64,000 bases of DNA from Candidatus Saccharimonadales bacterium (GTDB lineage Bacteria > Patescibacteriota > Saccharimonadia > Saccharimonadales > JANWIN01), in the NCBI GenBank assembly GCA_038231155.1, contig JBBRLY010000012.1, forward strand, positions 64,645 through 128,644. The letters run 5' to 3'. The notes below the pieces were generated by a model, which worked only from the letters and a program-made list of their open reading frames with translations, was not told the DNA's origin and searched no databases. Below are positions 1 to 50,178 of the stretch, piece after piece. Positions within the stretch are counted from its first letter, which is position 1. Each line of letters starts with the position of its first letter. A program made the position numbers and the translations under genes.

Positions 1-45
1 GCTCAAAAGCTAGAACTAAATATTTAAAGCCTATACCCTAGTTGT

Positions 46-1104
46 ATGATAACCGACATTAGACTGCAACACTTTAGATCTTATAAAGATTCAGCCTATG
101 AGCTGGACAAGGGTGTCAATATTATTGTTGGGCCAAATGGTAGTGGCAAAACCAACCTACTAGAGGCCTTACTGGTATTAACCAACGGTAGTTCTTACCG
201 GGCTAAAACCAGCGAATTAATTAAGTTTAAAAGTTCTTGGGCTCGCTTAGATGCCCACACAGTTGAAGGTGGCCAAAGAACTGTAAAAATAAATGCTTCT
301 GAAGCCTATCCTGTAAAAACCTTTGATATTAACTCCAGGCCATACAAGCGATTACCCCTGGCTCAAACTTTGCCGACGGTACTATTTGAGCCTCAGCATT
401 TACTACTGCTTAGCGGACGACCGGATCTAAGGCGTGAATTTATTGATGATCTACTTGAACAATCAATAATCGGCTTTGGCGAAACCCGGAGGGCCTATAA
501 GCGGGCGGTTTATCAACGCAATAATTTATTAAAAAAGGGTCCACAGCTGGCCCAGTCTCAACTTTTTGCCTGGGATATTAGAGTCAGTGAATTAGGCGGC
601 CAAATCGTTAAGCACCGACTAGAAATAGTTGAGAAACTTGCCGGTCAAATAGGCAGCCTATATAAGCATCTGTCTAGTAGTAAAGCTAATGTTAACCTAA
701 GCTATGACAGCTCATTAGCTCTACCTAACTACAGTACTAACTTACTTAATAAATTAGAGTCCAGCAGTGACCTTGATTTTATCCGCGGTTTTACCAGCCA
801 TGGGCCGCACCGCGATGACCTTAAGATTGAAATTAATAAACATATTGCTCAGGACGTAGCTTCACGCGGCGAAAACCGGACTATTTTACTGGCTCTAAAA
901 ATTATGGAACTGCAAATATTACAGAAACTGCGAGATCAAAAACCATTGCTACTTTTAGATGACGTTTTTAGTGAGCTAGATGGATCACGCCGCCGGGCTT
1001 TAACTGGCTATCTAAAAGACTATCAGACTTTTATTACTACAACTGACGCTGATTTAGTGATCCACGACTTTGCTCAAAAGTGTAATATTATTCCGCTTGG
1101 CTAG
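46..1104 (+). CDS. recF: DNA replication and repair protein RecF
   Basis: Walker A GPNGSGKTNLLEA near N-terminus, Walker B-like LLLDDVFSELD near C-terminus, ~350 aa SMC-like architecture typical of RecF. Confidence 0.9.
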   Translation: MITDIRLQHFRSYKDSAYELDKGVNIIVGPNGSGKTNLLEALLVLTNGSSYRAKTSELIKFKSSWARLDAHTVEGGQRTVKINASEAYPVKTFDINSRPYKRLPLAQTLPTVLFEPQHLLLLSGRPDLRREFIDDLLEQSIIGFGETRRAYKRAVYQRNNLLKKGPQLAQSQLFAWDIRVSELGGQIVKHRLEIVEKLAGQIGSLYKHLSSSKANVNLSYDSSLALPNYSTNLLNKLESSSDLDFIRGFTSHGPHRDDLKIEINKHIAQDVASRGENRTILLALKIMELQILQKLRDQKPLLLLDDVFSELDGSRRRALTGYLKDYQTFITTTDADLVIHDFAQKCNIIPLG

Positions 1105-1112
1105 AAGTAGCT

Positions 1113-1817
1113 TTATTCAAGCCCGCGGATAACGAAATAATCAATTCTTTCTTTTTGAGTATCTATTCCATGATCTGTCATATACTTTAGAGCTGCCGCT
1201 TTTTGGGTAGCAACTGGTGAGTTTGTCACTCTTACCAGGAAATAATCATCACTTTCGATATATTCAATTGAATAATTATCGTTGGTATATGGTAAAGACT
1301 TAATAAATTTGTTTCTGGCACTATTAACATCCTGAGTTTGATCGGTTTGATTAATTTGCTGTTGCTGTTGATCGGCAGGCAACTCATTAAACGGTACGTA
1401 CGTAACATTAAAGCTTAGTGTAATATCTGGCAGAGTTTTGCCTTGCTCTGATTTAATGTGAGTTAAGTGCATGGTATAGGGTTGGGATGTAAGTCCTTGA
1501 ATGCCGGGTTTAAAAACAACTTTTTTACCACTAATACTTACTGAACCGGGTGTCTCCGGACTGATAGCTACAATATTAAAGTCAAACCCAGTGCTGTAGT
1601 TTTGGCTATCAGTAGAGGTACTGTTAGCTTTAGCTAAGTTTTGATTAAAATAAAAGCTAACAATCTGAGTTGTTGGGACATTTTGTGAGCCATTGGCTGG
1701 ATCGGTTCTAACAAGATGAAATTGATGACCCGTTATAACGGCATAAATAATTACCAAAATAAGAACGGCCAAAATCCCAAAAATAATAACTGTACGCTTC
1801 ATTTTAGTCTGCCCCAC
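1113..1817 (-). CDS. membrane-anchored hypothetical protein, last gene of the T4SS-like operon
   Basis: Single N-terminal hydrophobic helix (VIIFGILAVLILVIIYAVI); its start overlaps the stop of the upstream hydrolase gene by 19 nt; no catalytic motif recognised. Confidence 0.5.
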   Translation of the reverse strand: MGQTKMKRTVIIFGILAVLILVIIYAVITGHQFHLVRTDPANGSQNVPTTQIVSFYFNQNLAKANSTSTDSQNYSTGFDFNIVAISPETPGSVSISGKKVVFKPGIQGLTSQPYTMHLTHIKSEQGKTLPDITLSFNVTYVPFNELPADQQQQQINQTDQTQDVNSARNKFIKSLPYTNDNYSIEYIESDDYFLVRVTNSPVATQKAAALKYMTDHGIDTQKERIDYFVIRGLE

Positions 1818-3043
1818 CCGATTATACGATTAGACGACGGATAATTAGTATAAGTGTTACGCTTGACGCTATTACTGGCATTGCCTTCAATTGTCGTGAT
1901 AGTCGTACCGCTGACGGTTTCAACTATACCAGCATGGTCAAGGTTACCACTGGTATCAGCATTACTACCGGAGTTACTAAAGATGACCACATCACCTGGT
2001 TGGGGTGCTGTCGCAGTTGGAAGGTTTTGGTAGAAGTTAGCATTGGCCTTAAACCAACTTTCTAGCCCTGGCACGCCGGGTAGCCTCCATCCACCGCTTT
2101 CTCCTCCGGTGAATGATACCCCAGCTGTCATATATACCCAACTCACAAAATTAGCACACCAGGATTGACAGATACCACCCATATACTTGTTGTTAACAGA
2201 TGGTAAACAGTTTGAGCCATCTGGCTGCTCATGAACATTAAAAGCTAACTCCGCTTCGGCAACCGCCACAATTTTACTACCCACTGCGCTACCACCAGCC
2301 GAGCAATCAACACCCGGATTTGGTTGGCTAGTTATTTTGTTGATGGTTTGAGTAGCGTTATTAACGTAATCGCTGGACTTATTTCCGACACTATCTGTCG
2401 CTCCGTTGGCATTACCGGTTAACCACTTATTGATAATCCTATCAAACGTACTAACGCTTGGATCATTAACGTATCCGGTCTTTAAACGGTTGAAAACGCT
2501 GTTACCTGCGGTCAGACTGGCTTCAAATGATGGAAAAATTATCCAAGTAAATCCACCAACCCGTAATCCAGGATCGCCACTACCAGCAGTCATACCAAAC
2601 GCGTTATGGGTGCCTTGATTAATTCCCCCGCTTCTTTGATCGGAACCTATACCAGACTCTTGAGCCCCAATCGCTATCACTAACATTGGATTCACGCCTG
2701 TGGCCTTTCCTTGGGCGACTAAAGTGGCACCTAAGGTTGGAATTTGTAAGAACGGCGAATTAGGATATGATTTTTGAATAAAACTGGTTAAAGCAGCTGC
2801 AAAAGCTGTTTCATCTGTAATATTAGGTAAACTACCGGAAATACAACCACCGGCAACACCGCTTTGTGAAGACTCATCGTTAATTTTCCAGTTTACCCAG
2901 GTACCGTTTATAGCATCAATATCATCCTGCGGAAGTGGCGCGGCGTGAACAGCTCCAGAATGGAAAACTAAACATAGCAACGTGTAGCAACAAACTACTA
3001 ATATTTGACCAGTTCTTGAAGTAGCATTCTTTAGACTTTTCAT
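1799..3043 (-). CDS. secreted peptidoglycan hydrolase, SLT/lysozyme-like N-domain plus C-terminal CHAP amidase/peptidase domain (VirB1-like)
   Basis: Signal-peptide-like N-terminus; AIGAQESGIG resembles the SLT catalytic E-S motif; C-terminal CQSWCANFVSWVY ... GDVVIF ... DHAGIVE matches the CHAP Cys/His pattern; same two-domain design as pIP501 TraG / pCF10 PrgK. Confidence 0.75.
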   Translation of the reverse strand: MKSLKNATSRTGQILVVCCYTLLCLVFHSGAVHAAPLPQDDIDAINGTWVNWKINDESSQSGVAGGCISGSLPNITDETAFAAALTSFIQKSYPNSPFLQIPTLGATLVAQGKATGVNPMLVIAIGAQESGIGSDQRSGGINQGTHNAFGMTAGSGDPGLRVGGFTWIIFPSFEASLTAGNSVFNRLKTGYVNDPSVSTFDRIINKWLTGNANGATDSVGNKSSDYVNNATQTINKITSQPNPGVDCSAGGSAVGSKIVAVAEAELAFNVHEQPDGSNCLPSVNNKYMGGICQSWCANFVSWVYMTAGVSFTGGESGGWRLPGVPGLESWFKANANFYQNLPTATAPQPGDVVIFSNSGSNADTSGNLDHAGIVETVSGTTITTIEGNASNSVKRNTYTNYPSSNRIIGWGRLK

Positions 3044-3062
3044 ATTACTAAGTCTTTAATTA

Positions 3063-6000
3063 TTACTGCCACGTTGGCCATCCATTCGGTAGAGGAATAT
3101 TGCTGACATCGCTTGTTAAGTGTCCCGGCGGTGCACCCAGACTTTGCAGAAGCTGCGAAAAGTTTATACCAAGTTGAGTGCTAAGATTCTCATGGTAAAT
3201 TGCATGAGCTAAGGCATGCTCACCAAACCCAGGTTCAGCCCAGCCAGTTTCAATACCAGGGCCTTTAGGAACTTCAAACATATTACAAATAACTGTATCC
3301 GCTGTTACACTTTGTCCAGGACCGATAGTCGGAGTACAATCCTCGGCAAAATATACAAACTTGCCAGCTGCCGGACCGTCTTTAAGTTGGTAAGAAATCC
3401 AGCCTCCACCCGGCCATCCGGCACCACTACTAGCGTCAATAACAGTGCCGTTACCCAGAGCGTAAATTGGTCCAACGCCATGGTAGTCGACGCCCTGATC
3501 TATTCTAGTCGGGCTTAAGCCTTTGACATCACGTAAAGGATTTTTATAACCAGTTGGGCTAGTCGGTGCTGTAGATGGAGTGGTTTGGGTTGCAGCAGCA
3601 CCCCCACTTAAGTCATCAGGCGTAAGCACATCAGTAGAGTAATAACCGCCATCGCTACCGACAGTTGATTGGATTAATAGGCAAGGATCAACATTGGTAT
3701 TTTCCAACTGCCCATTATCTTGATTAACACTATTAACGGAGTCTTGATTCCAGGCTTGAGTCTTGGAACTATCCTGACAGTTTTGGTTCCAGTAAGTTTC
3801 AGGATCAGTAGGGATTTGGTTGTCTGGATATCCATATTGAGTGATACCAAAAGGATCAGGACTAGTAGAAGCCGCTTCAGCTTTACCAGGTGTAAAGACT
3901 GAAGCTAAGCCATGAATTAATTTATCAAACGGATTACTAACTATGCTGCTAAATGTACCGTTGACTGCCGAGCTTTTGTCCAACGGTATCGTCATAGCCA
4001 TTCTGGATACAAGCGAAAACTGACTGTCTTTACTGAACATCCGAGCCAAAAATGGTCGCTTCTGGAATTCATACTTAGCCTGAGCAGTTTGTTCATTAAC
4101 AATATTAGCTGCTTGCTGAGACGAAATTGCTTGTGCTCCCAAACCGTGGTGGGCAAAGTCATTACCTGAAACATCAGCCCCGCCAGCCATCAGGTTGAAA
4201 GTTCGAGCTCCACTCATATCCGTACCTAAGGGATTTGGAAATACAAAGTTTGCGACAATCTTAAATATCGGCTGAGCCAGTTTACCGACTAAACTACTTA
4301 CATAACTTAAGGCGTCGGAAAAACCAGGTATATTGCCAACTATACCGCTGATAACGCTACCTACAAATCCTAAACCTTTACCTACTGTTCCATTCCAGAC
4401 CGAAGCCAAAGTCCCTATGCCTGCCAAATCACCAGAGTTTAACTGATCACTAATACTACTTAAAGTTGCGTTACCGCCGTTTAGTTGTTCTTCAGAACAG
4501 ACTTTTCCAGTGGATGGTATGCTGCCATCATTACAACTATTGGTACCAGAAATATTGTTGGGATCGGGTTTTATTGATGCTGCGTAAACTTTACTTGGTT
4601 GCGTAAAGCCAGTAGAACTAGAACCACTTGATCCATTGACTATTTGGTCATAAACAGGTGAGGCTTCAGCTGTTGCTGTACCACCTACTTGGTTCGGATC
4701 AATACCTTTGGCATTTAGACCGTCCGGATTGTGATAGCCTGGCCCCAAAGAGTCATTAAAAGAACCGGCTTCATTAGGATCAACATGCCCCGCTTTAAGC
4801 TGGTCGGCATATGTCCGGTATGTCATATATACACCCACCATCGCTGCAGCTCCAATAGCGTACTTGGCAGCTTTAGCCGCAGGACCAAGTTTTTGCAAAC
4901 CGCCAATTATTTGAGATGCCAAATTAACCCAACCAATTACTGGCAAAGCTTTATCTACTGACTGGGCAGCGGCTTGTTGAGCGGCCTCGTCTCCACCGGC
5001 TTGTCCGACAAGTGAAATGGCCAATTGTTTTACGAAATAATTACCTAGGCCATTATCAGCTACATCTTGGTAGAGTTTAAAGGCATCATCTGTGAGATAG
5101 CGGGCAACTAATTTATCCAAGGTAGTACGCATTTCCCTTTGGCCTTGGGTTTCGGCTTCTCCATTTAGTTCACAGTCTTTTCCTTCACTGCAAGGGACAG
5201 TTGTAGCATGTGATGGCTCACAATCTTTTTGGCCCAGCAAACACAGCAGAGCTGTACCTAGAATTTGACTTCTTGGTAGTATTACCCGCTGCGCTATATA
5301 TACTTGTGCTGCTCGTTTAGGTTTTTGCAAGGTATCGTTTATGCTCTCCACGGCCCTATTTTTTTTGCAACCTAAATCTGTTAGACATCTTTTAATACCG
5401 AATTTTTGCTCAATAAACTTGCCAAACTTAAAACGAAGTATTACCTGCTTCCACTTAGATTCTTTACTTATAGCATCATCAACAGCTTGTCTAACCTGGG
5501 TTCTATTAACTTGAGTAAATATATTCTCCGGCGAGGCAATATCGACCGCTGCTGGTGAGCTTAGACCTGGAGCCCGTAAAAAATACTGACGACTAACAGT
5601 ATTATATTTAAGTTCAATACCATAGGTATCACGTAGGCTACTTTCAAGTTTATTGTTATGCCATACTTTATATAAATTTGATATAGGTGATCCGGTTCCA
5701 TTCATATAAGGCGGTGTACAACCAGTTCTTACAACGCTGCCTTGACACTGCTTGGCATTAATTTTAAATAGTCCACTGACAAGGTTATTTGTTTCTTTTT
5801 GAACAGCATTTTCTTCGGAAGAGAAAAATCGGCTATGCAGGCTCTCAACAATTCCAATAATTTTAAGTGGTAAAAGTGACACGAAGCCAAAAATTATTAT
5901 TCCAATAATACCGCCACCAATGCCGGCCCCAAAGATGGCCCGGCGGCGGCCTTTACCGCCAAAAACTAGTTGCCTGCCTCGGCCAACCCTAGAATGATCT

Positions 6001-6260
6001 TCTGGGTTATAGCCCTCACCTATTTGGCCAGATTCAGATTCATCGGCCTTACTGGCAGTAGGTGATTCTGCGCCTTTTTCTTTTTTAGCCAGAGCTTCAG
6101 GTGCCGATGATTTTGAGCCACTATCTTCTGCGGCACCTTCCTGGGCCGACTGATCCATATCTGATTCTTCTTCAGGCGATATTCCAGTAAGTTCACGCAT
6201 ATGTGCATCGTCTTGATCGTCTTTGTTTTTTTCTTTATCGTATACGGATAATGCTGCCAT
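3063..6260 (-). CDS. large (1065 aa) T4SS-associated membrane protein with charged N-terminal tail, TM segment and big ectodomain; possible degenerate LytM/M23-like C-terminal domain
   Basis: Long uninterrupted ORF; acidic/lysine-rich first ~100 aa then GIGGGIIGIIIFGFVSLLPL hydrophobic segment; C-terminal DQGVDY..G.PIYALGNGTV..GIETGW follows M23 strand order but lacks HxxxD/HxH. Confidence 0.45.
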   Translation of the reverse strand: MAALSVYDKEKNKDDQDDAHMRELTGISPEEESDMDQSAQEGAAEDSGSKSSAPEALAKKEKGAESPTASKADESESGQIGEGYNPEDHSRVGRGRQLVFGGKGRRRAIFGAGIGGGIIGIIIFGFVSLLPLKIIGIVESLHSRFFSSEENAVQKETNNLVSGLFKINAKQCQGSVVRTGCTPPYMNGTGSPISNLYKVWHNNKLESSLRDTYGIELKYNTVSRQYFLRAPGLSSPAAVDIASPENIFTQVNRTQVRQAVDDAISKESKWKQVILRFKFGKFIEQKFGIKRCLTDLGCKKNRAVESINDTLQKPKRAAQVYIAQRVILPRSQILGTALLCLLGQKDCEPSHATTVPCSEGKDCELNGEAETQGQREMRTTLDKLVARYLTDDAFKLYQDVADNGLGNYFVKQLAISLVGQAGGDEAAQQAAAQSVDKALPVIGWVNLASQIIGGLQKLGPAAKAAKYAIGAAAMVGVYMTYRTYADQLKAGHVDPNEAGSFNDSLGPGYHNPDGLNAKGIDPNQVGGTATAEASPVYDQIVNGSSGSSSTGFTQPSKVYAASIKPDPNNISGTNSCNDGSIPSTGKVCSEEQLNGGNATLSSISDQLNSGDLAGIGTLASVWNGTVGKGLGFVGSVISGIVGNIPGFSDALSYVSSLVGKLAQPIFKIVANFVFPNPLGTDMSGARTFNLMAGGADVSGNDFAHHGLGAQAISSQQAANIVNEQTAQAKYEFQKRPFLARMFSKDSQFSLVSRMAMTIPLDKSSAVNGTFSSIVSNPFDKLIHGLASVFTPGKAEAASTSPDPFGITQYGYPDNQIPTDPETYWNQNCQDSSKTQAWNQDSVNSVNQDNGQLENTNVDPCLLIQSTVGSDGGYYSTDVLTPDDLSGGAAATQTTPSTAPTSPTGYKNPLRDVKGLSPTRIDQGVDYHGVGPIYALGNGTVIDASSGAGWPGGGWISYQLKDGPAAGKFVYFAEDCTPTIGPGQSVTADTVICNMFEVPKGPGIETGWAEPGFGEHALAHAIYHENLSTQLGINFSQLLQSLGAPPGHLTSDVSNIPLPNGWPTWQ

Positions 6261-6280
6261 GTGTAATTACTTATTTGATT

Positions 6281-8233
6281 CTAGACACCAGGAGTTAAGC
6301 GATTATCTAAATCGATTGTGCCTTGAGGTGGAGGAGCTACTTGACCACCAGCCACATTAAACTCACCTTGCTGTTGTTGTTCGATTTGCTGGACTTGAGC
6401 CGGATTGGTCGTAATCAGACCCATTTCGGTAGGGCTAGCGGCAATTTGGATATGTACGTGGCTCTGACCGGCAAAAAATAGACCTTGACCAACTGGAAAT
6501 TGACTTAATCTTTTCTTCTCTTCACTAGTCAGTTTAAATACATCGGTCAATACGTCAACAGCGGATGAGGACTGCTTTAAAAGTAACTGCATAGAAGCAT
6601 TAGCTACAATTGCTCGGCCCATGCGGCTGCCCATAAAATCTTCAACGTCTTGGCTGATAGTAGTTAAACCTAGGTTATATTTACGAGCTCGCTTAGCTAG
6701 ACTGAACATAAAGCTTGCTGAATCTTCATATCTCATAAGCTGCCAGGCTTCATCGATTATTAGCATGCGTCTTTTTTTATCACTCTTGGTTTTGTTCCAA
6801 ATAAAGTTCAAGACAATATACATGGCTACAGGGCGAAGCTCGTCTTCTAAATCACGGATATTAAAAACTACAAATGGATTATTAATGTCTATATTGCTTT
6901 GTTGAGAAAATATACCGGCAAAGGTACCGGACGTGTATTTGCGTAATCGCTGTGCCAATTGTGGCCCAGTGCCACCCATGTGCAGCAGTGTATCGTACAG
7001 TTCATTAATAGTTGGCGGAGTACCTATATGAGTCAATGGATCATTCGTAATCCCAGCTTTGGCATAGGTCTCAATTAAGGCTGCATCCAGATCAGCCTCT
7101 TCAACGGGGGTTAAGGCTGGCAAAGTCGCAACATTACCGCCGACCATTTGAGCTTGAGCTCCACCCATCATAAGACGCAGTAGTCCATGCAGCGTTATTA
7201 AGTTACTACGCAGGGCATTATCGGCTTCATCACTATCGACAACTTGCGGTAAATCAAACGGGTTAATGCGTGTGGCCGAGTTTAAACTCAAACGCACATA
7301 AGACCCACCAACAGCTTCACACATCCGTTGATACTCATTCTCTGGGTCAATTACAAAGATCTCAGTGCCAAACATTAAACTGCGTAGAGCTTCCAACTTA
7401 ACAGCAAAACTTTTACCGGCTCCCGATTTGGCAAACACCACACTATTGCCGTTTTCCAAACTAAATCGGTCAAAAATTACTAGTCCGGAGTTATGCATAT
7501 TAATGCCATATAAAATACCGCTATCTTGCGAAAGGTCAGCGCTAGTAAACGGAAAACTTGTACTAATTGCCCCAGTATTCATGTTGCGTCTAATTTGCAG
7601 TTGATCACTAAACTGAGGGACGGTGCTATTAAATCCTTGTTCCTGCTGAGCACTAGCCGTTTTACTATAAACTAGCTGCTGGCCTAAAATAGACTCGACT
7701 TTATGTGAAATAAACTCCAGTTCGTCCATTGAAGATCCGTAAATAGTAAAATACATACCAAAACGGAAGAAACGTTCTTCGCCAACTTGCAACTTGTCGC
7801 GCATTTCCTCAGCATCTTGAATAGCGGCTTGTTTGCCCGGGTCTCGGACCTTACCCTTCTCATTGTCAATTTGGATACCGGCTTCCAGCTGGGTAACCTT
7901 TTTACGTAAGTTTTCTAGTACCACCTGGCTTTCAACAGGATATATGAACATAGATAAGTCCATTACCTCATCTAGATTGACCATGCTACTCATCCAACCA
8001 GTAAAAATCTGACGTGGATAACCATAAACGTAGAAGGTTCTAGCAAAGCGCGTACCAAGATGAAAAAAACCATTCTCAAACACTAAAGAACTAGGTGCGA
8101 TAAAATCCCGTAGAGCAGTTACACCCTTTTGGAAGGCGGCATTAACTTCCTGTTGTTCACGCATCTGCTGCTCTTGGGCCAGCACTACCGGATCAACTTT
8201 TGGCTTTCTGCCAAACATCAGGCTTTCTCCCAA
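6281..8233 (-). CDS. virB4: VirB4/TraE/PrgJ-family type IV secretion ATPase
   Basis: Walker A FAKSGAGKSFAVK, Walker B RRMLIIDEAWQL, 650 aa, N-terminal CagE/TrbE-type domain; sits between PrgI-like and hydrolase genes. Confidence 0.9.
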   Translation of the reverse strand: MGESLMFGRKPKVDPVVLAQEQQMREQQEVNAAFQKGVTALRDFIAPSSLVFENGFFHLGTRFARTFYVYGYPRQIFTGWMSSMVNLDEVMDLSMFIYPVESQVVLENLRKKVTQLEAGIQIDNEKGKVRDPGKQAAIQDAEEMRDKLQVGEERFFRFGMYFTIYGSSMDELEFISHKVESILGQQLVYSKTASAQQEQGFNSTVPQFSDQLQIRRNMNTGAISTSFPFTSADLSQDSGILYGINMHNSGLVIFDRFSLENGNSVVFAKSGAGKSFAVKLEALRSLMFGTEIFVIDPENEYQRMCEAVGGSYVRLSLNSATRINPFDLPQVVDSDEADNALRSNLITLHGLLRLMMGGAQAQMVGGNVATLPALTPVEEADLDAALIETYAKAGITNDPLTHIGTPPTINELYDTLLHMGGTGPQLAQRLRKYTSGTFAGIFSQQSNIDINNPFVVFNIRDLEDELRPVAMYIVLNFIWNKTKSDKKRRMLIIDEAWQLMRYEDSASFMFSLAKRARKYNLGLTTISQDVEDFMGSRMGRAIVANASMQLLLKQSSSAVDVLTDVFKLTSEEKKRLSQFPVGQGLFFAGQSHVHIQIAASPTEMGLITTNPAQVQQIEQQQQGEFNVAGGQVAPPPQGTIDLDNRLTPGV

Positions 8234-8276
8234 TGGTCGAAACTAAAACCTAGATTCTGGTTTTGCTTAAAGCCGG

Positions 8277-9212
8277 TCATTTCAGTTCCCTATCTAAATT
8301 AGGTTGTCGAGCGTCACCTACTCCCTTGGTTACTACCGGCGTAGACAAATCATTGAAGTTTTTAAGTTCCTGGCGGGTAGCAGTATCGGGGTTATATACA
8401 TCATAATAAAGTTCAATTAGTTCCTGGGTATCAAGTGGTAGGCCCTGAATACCACATTGCAACAAACCACCCAACACAGCCTGAACCCGGTTACGTAGTT
8501 CGGCCTTAGCTTTTTCTAAATCATTCTCGTTAACGGTTACGTGTCGCTCCTTATTATTGAACAAAGCTGCTACACCGCTGAAAAGGTTTTTACTGGCAGT
8601 AAAGGCTTTTTGAATATCGACTGTCGGGAAATAGGGAATAATTAGGTAGAACTTCTTATCCATAATGTTGGTTTGTTGAGCCAACTGATCCATGTAGACA
8701 ATGTAATCTTCCATCATAAGCGCCAGCAGCATATTTTCATGCTCAGTCCGGATTTTATCCAACTTTTGAATGTATGGGCCGAGATCAACTTTTCGGGAGT
8801 GAATAAAAATTTGGATCGGGAAATAAAGTGAGTTTAAAAAGCCTTGGTAACTGTATTCCACAGCTTCTCTTTCTTGGGGACTCATCAGATCAAAGTTAAT
8901 AGACTTTGCCATTACTACAGAACGGAAAGAGCCATCATTCATAATTACAAAGCCATCACGAATTTCGGCAATTTGCAGGGCATTTTGAGTACTGTTGGGG
9001 TTAGCTTTAATGATTGACGGTTGAGCAGCGGGCGGCTGGCTAGAAGCTTGTGGAGATTGCTGTGGAGGCGCATATTGACCATAAGTCGGTGGCTGCACTG
9101 TCGACGGTATTGGTTGATCATACGAATTAGAATCCCGCTGAGCCGGAGCATAAGGATTATTAGGTGGTGGAGGTGGTGGTTGGTTAGTTGGGTTAGGTAA
9201 GTCTGGATTCAT
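8277..9212 (-). CDS. T4SS accessory protein, Pro/Gln-rich N-terminus plus globular C-domain (function unknown)
   Basis: Operon position between PrgI-like and VirB4 genes; N-terminal 70 aa low-complexity P/Q; no motif recognised with certainty. Confidence 0.4.
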   Translation of the reverse strand: MNPDLPNPTNQPPPPPPNNPYAPAQRDSNSYDQPIPSTVQPPTYGQYAPPQQSPQASSQPPAAQPSIIKANPNSTQNALQIAEIRDGFVIMNDGSFRSVVMAKSINFDLMSPQEREAVEYSYQGFLNSLYFPIQIFIHSRKVDLGPYIQKLDKIRTEHENMLLALMMEDYIVYMDQLAQQTNIMDKKFYLIIPYFPTVDIQKAFTASKNLFSGVAALFNNKERHVTVNENDLEKAKAELRNRVQAVLGGLLQCGIQGLPLDTQELIELYYDVYNPDTATRQELKNFNDLSTPVVTKGVGDARQPNLDRELK

Positions 9213-9378
9213 AGCTAACTCATCATAATTTTAAAGTCTTCAAAATACTGCATGTTCTTAAATTCATTGACCTTGTGCCAAATCAAAAACAAAAACGGAA
9301 ATTTATTGGCGTTATGGAGTCTAACAAAATTCATGTATATAAGGCCACCCTCTGATGTTAGACGACCTTTGGGCCAGG

Positions 9379-10515
9379 TTAGCGGAGTGGAACCACAACC
9401 TCGTTATCGGGCGGCTCCGGCTCGGGCTTTTTATTAACTTGCCGAGCAATGGTGGCCACTGATAAGTCGTCATTATTAGCAAACTCAAGTATAGCAGGGT
9501 TAAGCGTTTTGCCGCTAGTGTTGGCTTCTCTGTTGCCGGTTTGTTTGACATGATGCTTAGATTTAGAGGCTGATTTATTTCGGCGCTTGGAGTTCAGCGG
9601 CTCAATTACTCTGGTATGACCGTAAGCAACTAGAGGTTTTTCACTTTGTTTATGCAGCTGATTTAGTAAAGTTTGTTCAGTCGAGGTTAAAGGTGCGTCT
9701 GGTAAATCGCTGTCATTGGTTCCCGGTGCAACTGTTTGGGTACCAGTAAAGGTAGCGTAATCCGGTGGTACTTTTTCGGGCTTAGGCTGGTGCATAAACC
9801 AAAAATCTGGTGTTGGAGGTCGGTTTTGATGATCGGCTTTTTTAAGATGTTTAGGTGTACGGGCGTTGTCTAAAGTCTTTAAGGCAGATTGCCGATGGTT
9901 TTTAGATGAATCAGCCACCATTTGACTGAGGTGTACGGCAGTCGGGTTATTTTGTTCGTCCATAATGTCATCAGCAGCATGAACTTCAACATTGGGTACT
10001 TCACGAGCCAAAGCAGATAAATCAATTAACCTATCCGTTGTACGGTTAGCCATAGCCGAAGGCTGGTTAAACATATTAACGCTGGCGTTTTTCACAGCCC
10101 AACCACGGCTATCTATGGTATCGGCCAGGGCTTTAAGCCGGCTCTTTACTTCAACTTGACTAAGATTATTACTGACATATTGGTCTGCGGCGTGCTTGGG
10201 GGCAGTGATGGTAACCAATTCCTGCATGCCTGTTTGATCCCAAATACGGTGGCGTGGCTTTAGGATGAACCGAATTTTAGCTAAAAGCCATATCTCTGTT
10301 GGTTGATCTCTTCCCCATGGAAAAGCTAAAAAACCACTGACTAGCATAACCGGTATTAGCGGTATAGCTAAGAACCAAACATGTCTGGTTAAGAAAAAGA
10401 AGCTCATATAGCCACATACAAAAAATATACAAGCTAATATGAACTGCTTAAGCGTTAACGGTCCGACAAACTTGTCTTCTGCTTCTATATCTTGTAATAC
10501 TTTATATCCGGCCAT
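9379..10515 (-). CDS. PrgI-family (VirB3-like) T4SS membrane protein with long C-terminal extension
   Basis: N-terminus YKVLQDIEAEDKFVGPLTLKQFILA followed by two hydrophobic helices, the hallmark of PrgI/VirB3-like proteins of monoderm T4SS. Confidence 0.65.
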   Translation of the reverse strand: MAGYKVLQDIEAEDKFVGPLTLKQFILACIFFVCGYMSFFFLTRHVWFLAIPLIPVMLVSGFLAFPWGRDQPTEIWLLAKIRFILKPRHRIWDQTGMQELVTITAPKHAADQYVSNNLSQVEVKSRLKALADTIDSRGWAVKNASVNMFNQPSAMANRTTDRLIDLSALAREVPNVEVHAADDIMDEQNNPTAVHLSQMVADSSKNHRQSALKTLDNARTPKHLKKADHQNRPPTPDFWFMHQPKPEKVPPDYATFTGTQTVAPGTNDSDLPDAPLTSTEQTLLNQLHKQSEKPLVAYGHTRVIEPLNSKRRNKSASKSKHHVKQTGNREANTSGKTLNPAILEFANNDDLSVATIARQVNKKPEPEPPDNEVVVPLR

Positions 10516-10567
10516 CAGAGTTTAATTATCGTTGAATAAAACATTACAGGCAAGTCTTAAGTGCATA

Positions 10568-13500
10568 TTATTCGGCAGGTGGCGGTGGTGGCACATCTAA
10601 ACCACCAAATCGACTAGGATCTCGAGTTGCTCTTACAAGCGCTGCTTCTACTCTCTTACCAGAATCAGTAGTAGCACGACCATCAGCATCTTTTGGACCT
10701 ATAAGACTATCAAGCTTTGTTCTTAACACTTCGGCGGTTTCTGCAGGTGTGTTATAGCCATAGGCTGCTTGAGCCCATGCATCTAAAGTAGCAGTTTTAC
10801 GGGCATCTGTTACGCGCAGCTTCTGTCCTGATACAGCGTCTGTAATAGTGGCAGTTGCGTCGCTTGAAGTATCGGCGTTCAAAATTGCATCCAAAGCACC
10901 ATTTTTTAGAAAATGTCTTTCTATTTGTGCGCTTTTTGCCCCGGCTAGCTCTTGTACACTAGTTCGGGATAGCTGAATACTTCTAGCTGCAACACCTCCA
11001 GCAATGGTGCGACCAGTAGCTGCATCTACTTGTTCACTATATCCAACCTTACTCAATCCCCCTGCTTGGGCATTTATTAATCCAGCTTGAGTCTTAAAAG
11101 TATCCCCTAAACCTGGCGCAGTATCATTAAGCAAGTTAGTGTAGTTAGCGATTTCGTTATCGTCATCAGATGTAAGGAATCCTTGTTGTGCTTTAGCTAA
11201 ACCTGCAGCATAACCAATATGTGCCCGTCCGAACTCTTCAGTCCTCCAAGTTTCTTCAAGAAAAGAAGCTGAACTTTGAAGCTGATTTGCTCCGGCCAAG
11301 TTTTGTGTCCCACCCTTTGCTCTTAGATGTGCGATACTTTCATCAAGGCCGGCTCTTGTGACACGTCCTTTATTTTTGGCAGAAATACCCATAATCTCAG
11401 TTAAAGCTTCTTGATTAAAACCGGCTTGGGACATCCATTTTGCTAAATCTTGACCTTGCATAGCAGATTTTTGAGTTAATTCCGTTGCTAGGGCGCGACC
11501 CCGAGGAGTACCTAATGCAATTCTGGCGGTGTTCATAGGATCTGCTACACCTCCAGCAAGTCTATTAAGCCCTCTTAATTTTCCGGTTGGATTAAATCGG
11601 CGATTTTGAGAAGCAAATTCGTGTAACTCTTTTCTTTGTTGAGTTCGTTTCTCTCTTTGTTTATCAAAGAAACCACGTGAGCGATCATTAGCCATACCAG
11701 ATAATGTCGAGAATAGTCCACCAGCAAATCTAAATGTCAGAGGTATTAGGGCATAGGGGATAATATAAGCAAATATAACCAGTACTTGTGATTCCCAACT
11801 AGTTCCTCGAGTATCAGTAATAACTGATGCAAATATTTTACCTGAGCCTATAAGTATCAATATAAATGGGTACATTAAAAGTAATTTAAAAAATGAGTCC
11901 CACCAAAAATCCCAGCCTTTTTTAGTCCCAGGGAATATCCAGCATAAAATGGCCAGTGGTGCCAAAAGTAACAAGGCAAAAATAAGTATTTCCCGCACAG
12001 TTAGTAGCAAAAAGCCTATAAAAAGAATTGCAGCGGTTATTAAAGCTACACTTATAACAATGCCAAAGCTTATTGACCCAGCAAGTATTAATCCACCAAA
12101 TACTAGTAAACCAAGACCGGTAGTAGTTGTACTGTTACTAACTTTTATAAAATCTGCTAGGGTTTTATTAGCCACTCCAAATGGCTGAGTAATTAATCCT
12201 AATATTCCTTGCCCAAGGGAATTGGTGAATACTACCAAAAACCGAGTTATATACCAAGATACGCTGATAAACAAAACGGCTATTAAAAACCGCGGCATGG
12301 TCCGTCTAACAGTATAGGCATCCACAAAGCTGAAATTTAGAGCCGTACTAATTACCATAATTAGCATTAGGGGTACTAATATAATCAAGGCAATGTCTCG
12401 AATTCTCCCCCAGGCTTGCTTTAATTTATCGGTCTGACCATGTGTCCCTAGACTTTCAGGGTCAGGTGTTTTAAGTTGTGCCTGAATAGCAGAATCTAAG
12501 CCCTGAGTAGCTGAATCAAGTAGTTGAATAACTGGGCAAAATGCCCAACCCAATGCACCTGAGTGTGCTCCACAGCTATCAGCAGTAATTGATCCACTGT
12601 TTGCATTATTAGTTGCTAAAGCTGAACTTCCGGCTGGTTTATGACCGTTCTCTTTACCACCACCAATAACTTCTCTAAGCCCTTTTGCAATTTGACAAGC
12701 CCCATTATTTTGCAGATTTCTACCAGCATTGAAAATATCATTTGGCCAGCCATCGTTTAAATTATCATTTCTTAGTATAAGAGTACTTTTAGGTTCTCCA
12801 GGAACCGAAGCCGTAAATGATGACGAATAACAATCTGGAGGTGTTGAATTGTTTCCAACACGGCCCTCCGTGCCATAATAAGGTCCAGTTCCATTGGTTT
12901 GAACAAATATTATACTTGCCGTATTATTAGCGTCATCGGTTGAGGAAATTGTTCCAGCATCCTGCCACCAAAAATATATATCGTACGCGTCACTGCCTGT
13001 TTCCGGGTCTATGGGATTTTTAAAATTAATTGGTGAATCTTGCTCGGCACAATTATTTGTGTCGGCACCGGTAAATAAATGAATTGTGGCAGTTGCTGTG
13101 GCGAGGTGAAGGGTATCGTTGCCAATATTATTTGGCCAACTATCAATATAGTTTTTACCAGCACATCCTTGGACGTTTATAGCGCTAAAACCCAATGTGT
13201 CATCAATCTTCGGGTCTTTGTAAGTAATACCGCCTGATGTAATGGTACTGTGGTTTACCCAGGTACCTGATTGAGGTACCGGACCAGTTGGACCAGAAGG
13301 TATGGTGATAGTTATAGGAAAATTCTTACCATTAATACTGCCGCAAACGCCCCCGCTAGGAGTAATAGTAGCCTTAGTATCTTTATCTTGCCCATTGCTG
13401 GTTCTTAGATAGTAAAAACAATCATTTGACGGGTCACTACTATTACCATCTTCAAATACATATTCTCCTTTAGAATTCCATTTAAATGTAGCTTGCTTGG

Positions 13501-16997: not shown

Positions 16998-17088
16998 GGA
17001 AGGGTCGCATAGTTGGTCTAGTGCGCCTGTCTTGAAAACAGGTGTGCCGGCAACGGTACCGTGGGTTCGAATCCCACCCCTTCCGCCA
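16998..17088 (+). tRNA. tRNA-Ser (anticodon UGA), CCA encoded
   Basis: Hand-folded cloverleaf: acceptor GGAAGGG/CCCTTCC, anticodon stem CCTGT/ACAGG with loop CTTGAAA, long variable arm, T-loop GGTTCGAATCC. Confidence 0.9.
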
Positions 17089-17284
17089 TTTCGATAGTGA
17101 ATGGTTCTCTTTCAAACCCTTAACTCTTGTCTCGCTCTCTGTCGTAGGAACGACATCGAGCTGACCCGACGCACGACGAGAGTCAAGCTGAGGTGGTCGC
17201 ACCCAGGGGTCGTGCTCTCGGGCTGCACTCCCCAGCGTCGTCGCGCCGACCCGCGACTGTCTGACTGGCCTCTCGGAACCTCCC

Positions 17285-17668
17285 TTATCGGTCGGTGCAT
17301 TCGAGTGCGGCGAGCGCCTCGTTCGTGCTCGAAACTCGCATCACCAAGGGGTGGTAGAGAAACATCGTTGGGTCTGCGCCAGAGACGATCGCGATCACGT
17401 GCTTGCCGAGGGCCAAGGCAGCCCCGAGCTCAACGAACAGCCCGACGCCTCTCGGATGGACCATCACGATGACAACGTCCGCGTCACGGACGCCTGCGAG
17501 TTCGAGCTCCGCAGCGCTCTGCGATGCTCCCGCGTTCTTGTCGTATGGGCGAAGGTGCTCTATCGAAGTCCAGTCGAATGTCACATTGTGGCCGCGTTGT
17601 GACAAGACCGCTATCAGATCTTTGACGTCCTCGTGGTCACCGACCTTGCCGGAGACGAAAACGCGCAT
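17285..17668 (-). CDS. nucleoside 2-deoxyribosyltransferase-like protein (high-GC island cargo)
   Basis: 127 aa, MRVFVSG...DADVVIVMV...GVGLFVELGAALALGKHVIAIV resembles the Rossmann-like NDT fold pattern with conserved E; high GC3 in this frame. Confidence 0.45.
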   Translation of the reverse strand: MRVFVSGKVGDHEDVKDLIAVLSQRGHNVTFDWTSIEHLRPYDKNAGASQSAAELELAGVRDADVVIVMVHPRGVGLFVELGAALALGKHVIAIVSGADPTMFLYHPLVMRVSSTNEALAALECTDR

Positions 17669-18019
17669 CGAGCTACGGAGCGACCCCGGGATTTTTACAT
17701 CAGTCGCGAGCGGTATGCAATCGGGTGCGAGTGGTTCGTGTTGCGCCTGCTACTGCGAAGGGCGTCGACTCGCTGGCGAAGAGTGGTAGTGGCTCGTCGC
17801 TAGATGTAGACACTTCGGCGGGCCACACCTGTTCCTACGATTGAACGTCGCCGCGTGGGGGCGATCAGAATTACGTGGCCATCCCAAGACGAGCGGCCGT
17901 TCCCGACGCGATCACGATTCACGAGGTGACATTCCTGGCCTTTGCGATCGCTATGAGCGCCGCCAGCTTGCGGACGCATGACCATTCCTGGGGTCGACCC
18001 GGTTCGCCGGACATCGTTG

Positions 18020-18237
18020 CTATGCCGCGTGAGCGACTCTCCTGTTGCAGATCCTGGCTTCGTATTCGGCGGGTGTCAGGTAGTCGAGCGTGAAGTGGAG
18101 ACGCCGCCGCGCGTTTGAAAGAGCGCGATCCACCCGGATGAGCGACCGGTACCTCAGGATGGCGCCGCAACAGGGGAAACATCCGCACCGGCACCAACGA
18201 GCGGAGAGCCTGCGAGAGCTTTCAAACCCGTCAGACT
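18020..18237 (-). pseudogene. C-terminal remnant of an rve (DDE integrase-core) transposase, IS3-like
   Basis: Minus-strand frame reads ...YRSLIRVDRALSNARRRLHFTLDYLTPAEYEA..stop, the typical ...LDYLTPAE(Y/F)E transposase C-terminus; no upstream catalytic region present. Confidence 0.4.
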
Positions 18238-18338
18238 GTAAGCATTTGTAAAAATTAGAATATTTCCACCTCTGTAGATTTAAAAAGTAATTCTAATTAC
18301 CACCTGTTATCAATGTTATAAAAGTTACAAATGCTTAC
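18238..18338. repeat. 101-bp AT-rich palindromic mini-element (MITE-like) inside the high-GC island
   Basis: Perfect 14-bp terminal inverted repeat GTAAGCATTTGTAA / TTACAAATGCTTAC, inner inverted repeat ATTAGAAT / ATTCTAAT; 26 of 101 nt are G+C. Confidence 0.6.
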
Positions 18339-19036
18339 ACCCCTGGCGACCCGACAGAAATGATGCGCGAACAAGAAGTGCGACTCGAGCCGCAAGAACT
18401 CCCGGGTCAGGTCCCGTTCGCGGCCGATCACCTTCTTCACCGCGATCGTCGTGTTGTCGTAACTCGTCCGGGTCGGGACCCCGCCGAAGAACGAGAACGC
18501 GGCGACATGCGCGGCTTGGAATGTCTCGGTGCATTCGCGCGGATATGCCGACAGGTGCCACGCATCCGAAAACGGCAACGTCATCACCGCGAACGCCGCC
18601 TTGGTCCGTTCGCCGGCGATCACGACCGTTGCTTCACCGAAATCGAACTGCGCTTCGCCCGGCGGATGGCTGAGCGGCACGAAAACTTCTCTGCCATGCC
18701 GCTTCGTTTGCGCGACGTAACGGCGGACCTGAACCTCGCTGCCCCGATAGTCGTGCTCGTCACGCAGCCGGTGGAAGATCCGCCGAGCCGTGTGTCGCTG
18801 CTTCGGAGGCGCGTCCCGATCCGCCGCCAACATCTCGTCGATCAACCCGACAAACGGCCCCAGCATGGGCTGCGCCCGCGGCCCCCGGAACCGATATCCC
18901 GGCGGCTCCGCATGCTCGAGAATCTTCTCCAGCGTCTGCCAGCCCATCTTGTACTCACGACAGATCTCGCGCTTCGAGACCCCTCGACGAGCACCCTGCG
19001 CCGGATCTCTGACCACAGCTCCATATCGGTACGCAC
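18339..19036 (-). pseudogene. istA: IS21-family transposase IstA, frameshifted and 3'-truncated
   Basis: MELWSEIRRRVLVEG (HTH start) in one frame, continues as SKREICREYKMGWQTLEKIL...PLSHPPGEAQFDFGEA...LPFSDAW...GGVPTRTSYDNTTIAV in another; homology stops abruptly at the AT-rich element. Confidence 0.7.
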
Positions 19037-19129
19037 CCTTCTCCGTCCTGCTCGCCGGACTCTCCCGAGGAAGCCTCAAGGAGCCCAAACCAGCCGACGG
19101 GGACCGTCAGGTGCTGCCGTTTTCGACGA

Positions 19130-20086: not shown

Positions 20087-20179
20087 GGAGAGGTACCCAA
20101 GAGGCTGAAGGGGTCGGTTTGCTAAATCGATAGGGGGAAGCAATTTCCCGCGAGGGTTCGAATCCCTCCCTCTCCGCCA
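20087..20179 (+). tRNA. tRNA-Ser (anticodon GCU), CCA encoded
   Basis: Acceptor GGAGAGG/CCTCTCC, anticodon loop TTGCTAA, long variable arm, T-loop GGTTCGAATCC. Confidence 0.9.
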
Positions 20180-47644: not shown

Positions 47645-48946
47645 ATGGGTACTAGAGCAGTCGTAAAGAAATTTATTCCTAAAAAAGTTTTTAAAGTAGT
47701 GGAACCTTACGGTCATTTAACAGAGGCAGTTCTATTTAATACGCTATCCGGAATGCCAGCTCATAAGTTTAAAATTATTGGCGTTACCGGTACTAATGGA
47801 AAAACTACCACTTGTTTTTTAATTCACCGCATGTTGCATGAAGCTGGATTTAAAGTTGGCCTGATGACCACCGTCGGTTACGGGGTAGGTGAAGCAATTA
47901 AAGCCCAAGACGTACATATGACTACAGTACCGGTACCTATATTAATAAAGCGGTTTAAACAACTCAATCAAGATGGTGCTGAATGGCTAGTCATGGAAAC
48001 AACTTCCCACGCCTTAGCTCAACATCGAGTATGGGGCATGCCTTTTTATTTAGCCGTTTTAACTAACTTAACCCACGAGCATCTGGATTATCATGGTAGC
48101 TTTGAAAAATATCGCAGCGCTAAACTCAGATTATTTAATTTAGTAGCCAAAAACAGGGGTAGTTTAGGGGTCGGAGTAATAAATGCCGACGATCCTTCGG
48201 CGGCTGTTTTTGAAGCGGCAGCACCAAAGCCCCTAACTTACGGGATTAAAAACGGCGATATTCAGGCCATTAACATTAAGCAATCAGCAGATGGTAGCGA
48301 TTTTATGGTAAAGACTAGTAGTGGTGATTTACAACTTCGGGTTAACTTACCTGGACTTTTTAATATCTATAACAGCCTGGCGGCAGTTGGAGTAGGGCTG
48401 GCTCTAAATTTAAGTTCACAGCAAATAGAGCAGGGGATTGCTGCACTTAAGAGTGTACCTGGGCGTATGACTCGGATCGATGAAGGCCAAGCCTTTAATG
48501 TAATTGTCGACTATGCCGTGACACCTGATGCCCTAAAAAATGTTCTACAAACTACCCGTGAAATAACGCCTGGACGATTAATTCTGGTTTTTGGGGCAAC
48601 TGGAGATCGGGATAAAACTAAACGACCCCAGATGGGTCAGATTGCTGGTAAGTATGCCGATTTAATCTTTTTAACTGATGATGAAACTTATACTGAGGAT
48701 CCGGCTGCCATCCGCAAGGAAGTGTTTGAGGGTATCAAGGAAGTCGGTGACTCAAGCAAAACTCAAGAAGTGCAGGACCGCTTAAATGCCATTAAACAAG
48801 CCATAGAAAATGCTCAAAATGGCGATACCATACTTCTTACCGGTATTGGCCACCAAACTACCCGCAATATGGGCGGTAAAGAAGTTGCCTGGAACGAAAT
48901 TGAGATAATCCATAAGCTTTTAAAAGACAAAAAGCCATCTAACTAA
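47645..48946 (+). CDS. murE: Mur ligase, most like UDP-MurNAc-L-Ala-D-Glu:diamino-acid ligase (short N-domain)
   Basis: GVTGTNGKTTT P-loop, DYAVTPDAL, LTDDETYTEDP (cf. MurE DNPR.E.P). Confidence 0.7.
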   Translation: MGTRAVVKKFIPKKVFKVVEPYGHLTEAVLFNTLSGMPAHKFKIIGVTGTNGKTTTCFLIHRMLHEAGFKVGLMTTVGYGVGEAIKAQDVHMTTVPVPILIKRFKQLNQDGAEWLVMETTSHALAQHRVWGMPFYLAVLTNLTHEHLDYHGSFEKYRSAKLRLFNLVAKNRGSLGVGVINADDPSAAVFEAAAPKPLTYGIKNGDIQAINIKQSADGSDFMVKTSSGDLQLRVNLPGLFNIYNSLAAVGVGLALNLSSQQIEQGIAALKSVPGRMTRIDEGQAFNVIVDYAVTPDALKNVLQTTREITPGRLILVFGATGDRDKTKRPQMGQIAGKYADLIFLTDDETYTEDPAAIRKEVFEGIKEVGDSSKTQEVQDRLNAIKQAIENAQNGDTILLTGIGHQTTRNMGGKEVAWNEIEIIHKLLKDKKPSN

Positions 48947-49067
48947 CAGCTTGCAAGTTTGACAAGTTAGGATATAATAAAAATGATTTAATTGAGCATA
49001 AACACTTTTTGTGCTACTTAATTAATTCCGAATACGCTCCTTGAGCTAAACAGTTCGGACGTATTAG

Positions 49068-49751
49068 TACGTTGAGATTGTAGCTCCTTGGAAGTAATAA
49101 GCGCCGGTTATTAACGGACGTTTGTTACTTCCAAGGGGGGAAGTGAAAACAGGTTCAGGGATGATCATCCAACAAGAAGGGAAATACCCTGATGCGAAAC
49201 AGTGCTAAGGCACTCGAAGTCTCCGTAGCCGATGAAATCGGTGTCGAAGAAATCGAGTCTAAGCCACAACCCAAGCCTGGGACAAAGCGTCACAGCGACA
49301 CCTGGGCAAGACGGAACGGAAGAAGAGCAAAAGATCGCAAGCGCGACAGAAAGCTTCTGAGCAGTCAGAAAGCCAACAAGCGCCGGCGAGACTTCGGACT
49401 CAAGTTCGAACACCAGTATGTGCCTCTTCTCGTGACGTCGGGCGATCGTCTCAACGATCTGTTCGCACAACGCTGATCTTCCAGATCGCAAGCAACTCCA
49501 TGGATGGACTAGTAGAAAGGAGATGCCAACGCAAAGAGACCGTGCTTGATCGGATCGTAGACGGACCTGCAGCCTTCAATTGCATCGAACCATGCTGCAG
49601 ACGATGTACGTCTCTCTGATTGACCACTAAACTACGACAGACGCTGAGTCGACCGGGCCCCGCCCAAGAAATGTCCTGCAAAGGGATCGGTCGGCTCAGC
49701 GCGTCTGCTTCTCTCTATATCCCCATCCCCCCCAGCCGCAATCTCAACGTA
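49068..49751. other. 684-bp GC-enriched, TIR-bounded, hairpin-dense element (MITE-like or large ncRNA)
   Basis: Termini TACGTTGAGATTGTAGCT / AGCCGCAATCTCAACGTA (16/18 complementary); 12-bp perfect stem CCTTGGAAGTAA..TTACTTCCAAGG; ~16-bp stem GACGCTGAGTCGACCG..CGGTCGGCTCAGCGCGTC; sample lines 36/60 and 31/60 G+C versus 15/60 in the flank. Confidence 0.6.
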
Positions 49752-49805
49752 ATTTCACCCAAGTTATTTTAGGCAACCTAACATGGTTGTCTTTATATTT
49801 GAGGC

Positions 49806-49835
49806 TTGACAGCCACTTCAGATTTAAAGTAGTAT
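49806..49835 (+). promoter_or_regulatory. groESL promoter
   Basis: TTGACA - 18 nt - TAGTAT, just upstream of CIRCE. Confidence 0.6.
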
Positions 49836-49846
49836 TGATCTGAAAG

Positions 49847-49873
49847 TTAGCACTCTAACCATCAAAGTGCTAA
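49847..49873 (+). promoter_or_regulatory. CIRCE operator (HrcA-binding inverted repeat)
   Basis: TTAGCACTC-N9-AAGTGCTAA versus consensus TTAGCACTC-N9-GAGTGCTAA, 38 nt before groES ATG. Confidence 0.85.
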
Positions 49874-49911
49874 CACACAATCCAAGGGACTAATTTACAG
49901 GAGGAATACAA

Positions 49912-50178
49912 ATGAGCGTACCGGTTCAACCATTAGGTGACTTTGTAGTCGCCCAACAGCAAGCTGCCGAAACTAAAACGGCTAGCGGCCTATATTTACC
50001 CGACGCCGCTAAAGAAAAGCCTAAAGTAGCTAAGGTTTTAGCTGTTGGTAAAGAAGTTAAAGATCTTAAAGCTGGTGACAAGATTATCTACGGTGGCTAT
50101 AGCAACGAAGATATCAAAATTGAAGGCCAGGAATATATATTAATCAAGCAAGAAAACATCTTTGCAACCATTAAGTAA
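49912..50178 (+). CDS. groES: co-chaperonin GroES
   Basis: 88 aa, PLGDFVV..ASGLYLPD..GKEV..GDKIIY pattern; AGGAGGA SD. Confidence 0.95.
   Translation: MSVPVQPLGDFVVAQQQAAETKTASGLYLPDAAKEKPKVAKVLAVGKEVKDLKAGDKIIYGGYSNEDIKIEGQEYILIKQENIFATIK

Follow-up and report, generated by a model that had tools for sequence, protein, structure and literature searches.

A 684-bp non-coding, inverted-repeat-bounded element between murE and groES in a Saccharibacteria genome

A 684-bp non-coding element lies at 49068-49751, between a Mur ligase gene (murE) and groES, in a Saccharibacteria genome (positions are those of the window, the whole 64-kb stretch of DNA that was analysed). The element is real and statistically unusual, and it falls in no known family among the collections searched. 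Our tentative reading, to which we give a probability of roughly 0.4, is that it is a horizontally acquired, inverted-repeat-bounded, non-coding, non-autonomous transposon-like insert or remnant that is passively transcribed. An earlier note on this DNA had proposed either a non-autonomous transposon or a structured RNA; the discrete, inverted-repeat-bounded, compositionally foreign and non-coding unit that it described stands, but neither specific reading is established. As a transposon-like insert, the element would be a small, clear case of foreign non-coding DNA entering a reduced Saccharibacterium genome.

Termini, boundaries and base composition

The neighbours of the element are a Mur ligase gene on one side and, on the other, GroES and GroEL genes behind a promoter and a CIRCE-like repeat, which agrees with the placing between murE and the groESL promoter in the earlier note. 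The best GroES relatives of the window in GTDB are Saccharibacteria MAGs throughout, and the nearest GroES in the protein collection searched is just 80% identical. The locus and the parts of the element are as follows.

47645-48946: Mur ligase gene (murE), assigned from PF08245/PF02875
49068..49085, unstranded: terminal inverted repeat, left arm TACGTTGAGATTGTAGCT, pair probability about 1.0 in the + strand ensemble
49086..49136, unstranded: subterminal hairpin HP1, with arms of 25 nt (84% complementary) and a 12-bp base free of mismatches
49135..49152, unstranded: inner continuation of the left arm, G-rich, GGGGGGAAGTGAAAACAG, pairing with 49715-49732 (72% complementary)
49153..49637, + strand: non-coding interior, rich in A and in G+C and poor in T, in which short hairpins are modestly in excess and the folding energy is not significant
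49638..49707, unstranded: subterminal hairpin HP2, 19-nt arms, 84% complementary, pair probabilities 0.8-1.0
49715..49732, unstranded: inner continuation of the right arm, C-rich, CTATATCCCCATCCCCCC, from the end-to-end alignment with the left side
49734..49751, unstranded: terminal inverted repeat, right arm AGCCGCAATCTCAACGTA, pairing with the left arm; the right G+C change point is at 49739-49749
49806-49835: groES promoter-like site TTGACA-18-TAGTAT
49847-49873: CIRCE-like inverted repeat TTAGCACTC-N9-AAGTGCTAA, ahead of groES
49912-50178: groES, with groEL next

The two arms (49068-49085 and 49734-49751) are reverse-complementary at 16 of 18 positions, as the earlier note had counted, and the repeat reads (TA)CGTTGAGATTGYRGCT when the flanking TA is included. 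When the 965-bp intergenic region was dinucleotide-shuffled 200 times, an 18-nt inverted repeat of this quality arose once. Beyond HP1 the repeat resumes, with about 13 of 19 further positions matching between the left end and the reverse complement of the right end. HP1, a 49-nt hairpin, breaks only the left arm of this extended inverted repeat, and the arms reach about 37 nt if HP1 is taken as an interruption of the left arm, which gives the element the layout repeat - HP1 - G-run ... HP2 - C-run - repeat. Terminal inverted repeats thus stand at the exact ends of the unit, the arrangement by which MITEs and TIR transposons are recognised.

The composition changes at nearly the same places. 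The G+C content is 0.538 inside the element, compared with 0.35 in its flanks and 0.415 in the whole window, which bears out the enrichment first noticed in sampled lines, and a maximum-likelihood two-change-point fit to G+C puts one boundary at 49101 and the other at 49739-49749, both near the arms of the repeat. Both the rarity of the terminal repeat together with these nearby change points and the continuation of the repeat beyond HP1 argue for a transposon-like insert. The bases are also distributed asymmetrically within the element (A 28.5%, T 18.9%, with an AT skew of up to 0.49), and such a strong excess of A over T, which is not predicted for a purely DNA-level element, counts against that reading. 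So does the ambiguity of the TA that had been put forward as a possible target duplication: a TA is indeed present at both ends, but it is self-complementary and equally well read as two extra bases of the repeat, and therefore provides no evidence of target-site duplication. The corresponding gap in the relatives has unrelated content, so it offers no empty site for comparison.

Several smaller features of the element were also recorded. An exact 11-nt direct repeat, AGATCGCAAGC, occurs at 49332-49342 and 49483-49493 (spacing 151 nt), and two adjoining, near-identical small hairpins, CGATGAAATCG and CGAAGAAATCG, lie at 49230 and 49245. The nine GATC sites were considered as an origin-like or methylation signal, and this was rejected: their count fits the local trinucleotide composition, and a G+C-rich island at 18.6 kb is equally dense in them.

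The murE-groES gap and its transcription signals

The locus was compared with nine Saccharibacteria loci, obtained by a GroES-anchored search of GTDB genomes, and with two further contigs. The gene order tsaD-murE-[gap]-groES-groEL is kept across the relatives, with a gap of 0.7-3.8 kb whose content is unrelated and consists mostly of uncharacterised protein genes; in the hypervariable gaps listed below, the lineage-specific genes take up 0.7-5 kb. The 684-bp element is absent from all nine loci and from both further contigs, and the sole alignment between window and relatives across the gap is the groES promoter/CIRCE stretch; an orthologous copy in the relatives was rejected, the gene order being kept and the gap content unrelated. 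The murE-groES gap thereby emerges as a hotspot of gene turnover among Saccharibacteria. Its extent in individual relatives, with what was seen there, is as follows.

L002, 2470-5270: hypervariable gap, with one minus-strand ORF that is amidinotransferase- or arginine-deiminase-like, judged by eye
L006, 2595-6000: hypervariable gap, with one minus-strand ORF of the same description, also judged by eye
L069, 2194-6000: hypervariable gap, with an arginase (Pfam)
L070, 1041-6000: hypervariable gap
L003, 5047-6000: hypervariable gap
L008, 1583-2290: hypervariable gap

Within the L006 gap, about 240 nt at 4590-4830 are G+C-rich and contain no convincing ORF. This stretch is situated downstream of a 115-aa gene on the minus strand and closes with a minus-strand terminator-like hairpin; Rfam gave no match to it, and it does not resemble the window element.

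Two transcription signals flank the element in the window, and -10-like boxes recur after murE in the relatives.

48951..48992, + strand: promoter-like TTGCAA-16-TATAAT (48951-48978), a consensus match, then aaaaa and ATG ATT TAA
49771..49802, + strand: terminator-like hairpin with a T-run, 20 nt past the element and before the groES promoter
-10-like box: window 48973-48992; L003 at about 5085; L004; L006 at about 2620; L008 at about 1640

No terminator-like site was seen between the promoter at 48951-48978 and the element. In L003, L004, L006 and L008, a -10-like box directly downstream of murE (TATAAT, or TATAAC in L008) precedes the first gap-gene ATG by a few to about 15 nt, which suggests that gap genes starting after murE in the relatives may be expressed from leaderless or very short-leader mRNAs. 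Since the relatives place the first gap-gene start at the same position, the 48951-48992 site, with its 2-codon ORF, looks like a relic of the start of a leaderless gene that has been lost. From these sequence signals we infer that the + strand of the element is probably transcribed, through an inherited rather than a dedicated promoter. The absence of the element from every relative and its inherited-looking promoter favour a transposon-like insert over an ornate RNA.

Of the 12 nt at 49081-49092, near its left end (TAGCTCCTTGGA), 10 can pair with the groES leader at 49881-49892, just upstream of the ribosome-binding site; this complementarity is probably due to chance.

Folding and the case for a structured RNA

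The whole element folds far better than its shuffles: z is -8.5 for the + strand, or -10.4 when the putative transcribed flanks are added, and -6.5 for the - strand. This signal comes mainly from the ends, where the terminal repeat and the two long subterminal hairpins lie. Among 120-nt windows, 49040-49159 gives z = -7.3 on the + strand and -5.8 on the - strand and 49640-49759 gives z = -3.8, whereas those between 49220 and 49580 range from -1.0 to +1.5. The centre (49240-49600) has z = -1.1 on the + strand and 0.0 on the - strand, in the same range as coding controls, and the interior overall has z of -1.1 to -2.5 on the + strand and 0 to -0.8 on the - strand, with controls alike. Compared with shuffles and coding controls, the central ~360-485 nt thus give neither a folding-energy nor an ensemble signal on either strand. 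A G+C-rich centre that folds no better than shuffles does not owe its G+C to RNA stems, and significant structure confined to the ends, where a transposase would act, favours a transposon-like insert over an ornate RNA.

The earlier note had described an interior packed with strong stems. All the stems that it listed are present, and short hairpins (perfect stems of at least 4, loops of 3-8, counted against shuffles and 42 control windows) are enriched about two-fold, with 24 in the interior compared with 11.6 +/- 4.0 for the shuffles (z = 3.1; the highest value among the 42 control windows is 2.6). The excess is a modest one, and the energy-based structure sits at the ends rather than in the interior. 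The hairpin excess disappears once G-U pairs are allowed, which marks it as a Watson-Crick, strand-symmetric property, and as such it again favours a transposon-like insert over an ornate RNA. The choice of strand by G-U versus A-C stem mismatches was uninformative, five favouring the + strand and four the - strand.

These data bear on the main rival explanation, in which the element encodes a large structured non-coding RNA, about 0.7-0.8 kb long and confined to its lineage. Such an RNA would be read from the + strand between the promoter at 48951-48978 and the terminator-like site at 49771-49802, an 18-bp helix would close it above a junction that includes HP1 and a G6/C6 helix, and it could be carried by a mobile element. 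We consider this alternative rather unlikely. The bias of the fold towards the + strand and its strengthening by the transcribed flanks speak for such an RNA, and the full-length + strand ensemble is better defined than shuffles (diversity 76 versus 153 +/- 36) while the - strand ensemble is not (170 versus 164 +/- 39). As evidence for an RNA, however, ensemble well-definedness was rejected, as the interior alone shows none and coding controls reach a similar z of -2.2. The promoter-like and terminator-like sites are correctly oriented for an RNA gene, but the promoter appears to be the leftover of a lost protein gene, not a dedicated one. The lack of coding also agrees with an RNA, as does the composition of about 54% G+C, A-rich and U-poor, which is typical of structural RNAs in AT-rich genomes. 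Furthermore, these Saccharibacteria genomes are compact, and 684 nt of inert DNA would be unusual in them. Against the RNA alternative stand the unstructured centre, the loss of the hairpin excess with G-U pairs, and the absence of the element from all relatives, which means that the lineage does not conserve it as an RNA.

Searches for known RNA families likewise speak against it. Rfam 15 gave no match at the element when the whole window was scanned at gathering score, and at E <= 10 over 48900-49950 it gave three noise matches only, two to microRNA models on the hairpins and one to RsaOG in the flank. ROOL, GOLLD, OLE, RNase P, tmRNA, group I/II introns, HEARO and ribozymes are without an Rfam match; Rfam includes models for ROOL, GOLLD, OLE, RNase P, tmRNA, introns and ribozymes. 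Rfam gave no match over the nine related loci either. No homologue for covariation was obtained by any route searched, hence there is no covariation support, and literature searches on Saccharibacteria/Patescibacteria brought up nothing relevant on non-coding RNA or MITEs. In sum, the structured-RNA reading retains the whole-element fold (z = -8.5) but has no Rfam match and no thermodynamic signal in the central half of the element.

Like ROOL, GOLLD and OLE, the element falls in the 0.6-0.8 kb class, is non-coding and richer in G+C than its AT-rich surroundings, has ends joined by pairing, and may be associated with mobile DNA. Unlike them, it has no Rfam match, no structure signal in its interior and no family of homologues, whereas it was covariation over many genomes that defined the known classes (PMC5737381, PMC12286853). 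In its most specific form, the element would be the gene for an unseen structured RNA of about 0.7-0.8 kb in one deep-branching Saccharibacteria lineage, using the promoter of a lost gene, closed by the 18-bp helix and perhaps borne by mobile DNA; we regard this as unlikely. Were it true, the element would be an orphan counterpart of the ornate RNAs (ROOL, GOLLD) in an ultra-small epibiotic bacterium, and would add a large non-coding RNA to a lineage in which RNA biology has hardly been explored.

A further comparison concerns ribosomal RNA. Bacterial rRNA genes carry intervening sequences, and ORF-less insertions are common in the rRNA genes of the candidate phyla radiation. The element resembles these in being a non-coding insertion with complementary ends that would pair into a long helix once transcribed, and by analogy this helix could plausibly be an RNase III substrate. 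Unlike them, the element is not inside an rRNA gene, and neither it nor its flanks match an rRNA model.

Coding potential, mobile-element comparisons and other foreign DNA

Inert DNA offers another explanation, namely that foreign or filler DNA was caught at a recombination or deletion scar when the gap genes were lost, the repeat and hairpins being features of the donor with neither mobility nor RNA function. An orphan, single-copy sequence (in the collections searched) with an unstructured, non-coding interior, lying in a hypervariable slot that retains a vestigial gene start and sharing its window with another foreign island, is compatible with such an origin. We nevertheless find it doubtful: the composition boundary coincides with a repeat of a quality seen in 1 of 200 shuffles, and this repeat extends to about 37 nt, both of which point to a defined unit with functional ends and not to a random fragment.

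The non-coding status of the element is based on several observations. The ORFs reported earlier, of 94 aa on the + strand and 108 aa on the - strand, exist as described.

49192..49476, + strand: 94-aa ORF, called as a gene in public assemblies; orphan

Coding was assessed by 3-base periodicity, as a chi-square of nucleotide by codon position. The element gives chi2 3.1 (p = 0.77) and the 94-aa ORF chi2 11.0 (p = 0.11), the full range being 3.1-11.0 (p = 0.11-0.89), whereas control genes (stretches of murE, groES and groEL of similar length) give 27-56 (p < 0.002), a range that also holds two foreign G+C-rich genes elsewhere in the window. Long open stretches in all three + frames result from the T-poor strand (18.9% T). 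A search of 5.8 billion clusters with the 94-aa ORF returned only the ORF itself, phmmer over 1.84 billion representatives returned itself and one low-complexity match, and the 108-aa ORF had no match in the protein collection searched. Pfam and PHROGs gave no family match in any frame of the element, nor did Pfam over all reading frames reveal a transposase remnant. A protein gene or pseudogene was rejected on these database blanks, the orphan ORFs and the lack of codon periodicity, and the decayed protein-coding gene that the earlier note had named as the contrary outcome is thus not what we find. The 94-aa ORF is probably not translated into a conserved protein, and the non-coding status with orphan ORFs counts for a transposon-like insert. 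That the element is a cassette for a genuine orphan small basic protein encoded by the 94-aa ORF at 49192-49476 is very improbable: the ATG start with a weak purine-rich stretch (AGAAGGG) upstream, the G+C by codon position (0.61, 0.43, 0.57) and the calls by public gene callers speak for it, but its periodicity falls short of every real gene tested, its openness is shared by all three + frames of a T-poor strand, and it lacks both a Pfam or PHROGs family and a protein match beyond the low-complexity one.

To return to the transposon-like insert, the element would have arrived either by transposition through a transposase acting in trans or by DNA uptake followed by illegitimate recombination. 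The murE-groES slot in which it sits changes its content quickly among Saccharibacteria; the gene once present there would have been lost, leaving its promoter and start codon behind, and passive transcription would run from this leftover promoter to the terminator-like hairpin before groES. The transcript would then fold into a long closing helix and two large subterminal hairpins, and a cellular function would not be needed.

Bacterial MITEs mobilised by IS630 / Tc1-mariner transposases include the Correia elements of Neisseria and RUP of Streptococcus pneumoniae. The element is like the MITEs of these families in having terminal inverted repeats without a transposase gene and a TA at both ends, and in being intergenic, able to fold back and transcribable from neighbouring promoters. 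Unlike Correia and RUP, it is several times longer at 684 bp, G+C-rich rather than AT-rich, ambiguous in its TA as a duplication, and seen in a single copy in about 75 kb, with no related transposase or terminal repeat in the collections searched. The proposal of an IS630-derived MITE accordingly keeps its terminal repeats at the exact ends but lacks a second copy, a related repeat and a transposase remnant. Mobile insertion cassettes, such as MIC231 of Bacillus cereus, are inverted-repeat-bounded units without a transposase; the element is in a similar size range, likewise has terminal repeats but no transposase, and encloses a cargo of foreign composition, and it differs in that this cargo has no sign of coding. 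We know of no parent insertion sequence for the element.

Additional copies, which the earlier note had suggested looking for, were sought in the window and about 11 kb of flank, in the relatives, in IMG/VR and JGI metagenomes, and among phages and plasmids, and none was found. The terminal arms do not recur elsewhere in the 64-kb window with 3 mismatches allowed, and there is no second copy in the about 75 kb of genome formed by window and flank. No related sequence was obtained by blastn against phages and plasmids, and none in IMG/VR by terminal-repeat pattern, hairpin patterns or back-translated ORF seeds. In JGI metagenomes the ORF seeds gave no match, and the terminal-repeat pattern gave 30, all single, unpaired, at chance level and without extension. 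Taking the window, IMG/VR and these metagenomes together, matches to the pattern were single and at chance level, two of them being one unrelated gene. A parent autonomous element with matching repeats was found in neither IMG/VR nor JGI metagenomes. The single copy in about 75 kb, the lack of a partner transposase or related repeat in IMG/VR and JGI metagenomes, and a length of 684 bp, which is long for a bacterial MITE, count against a transposon-like insert.

The window also holds a second foreign island. Between 17100 and 20050, an island of 63-66% G+C stands in a genome of 41% G+C and is clearly foreign DNA.

16998-17088: tRNA-Ser(tga), left of the island
17285-17668, - strand: nucleoside 2-deoxyribosyltransferase-like gene, in the G+C-rich island
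18297-19088, - strand: truncated IS21 istA-like ORF with an rve domain, 67-69% nucleotide identity to istA of alpha-proteobacterial plasmids
20087-20179: tRNA-Ser(gct), right of the island

The island with its IS21 istA fragment indicates that this genome takes up foreign DNA, and it supports the reading of the murE-groES element as an insert. Within the island, a 21-nt inverted repeat (17097-17117 / 18113-18133, 81% complementary) brackets a G+C-rich segment of about 1.04 kb with the deoxyribosyltransferase-like gene. This segment (17097-18133) could represent another foreign cassette bounded by repeats, or the match could be due to chance; the sequence of its repeat is unrelated to that of the 684-bp element. 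Elsewhere in the window, the left edge (window 1-12000 and L102) carries dnaN and a recF-like gene, so that the replication origin is probably close by. These two genes are followed by a type IV secretion-like cluster with a TraG P-loop protein, a TraC-like protein, PrgI, TrbL and a CHAP-domain protein.
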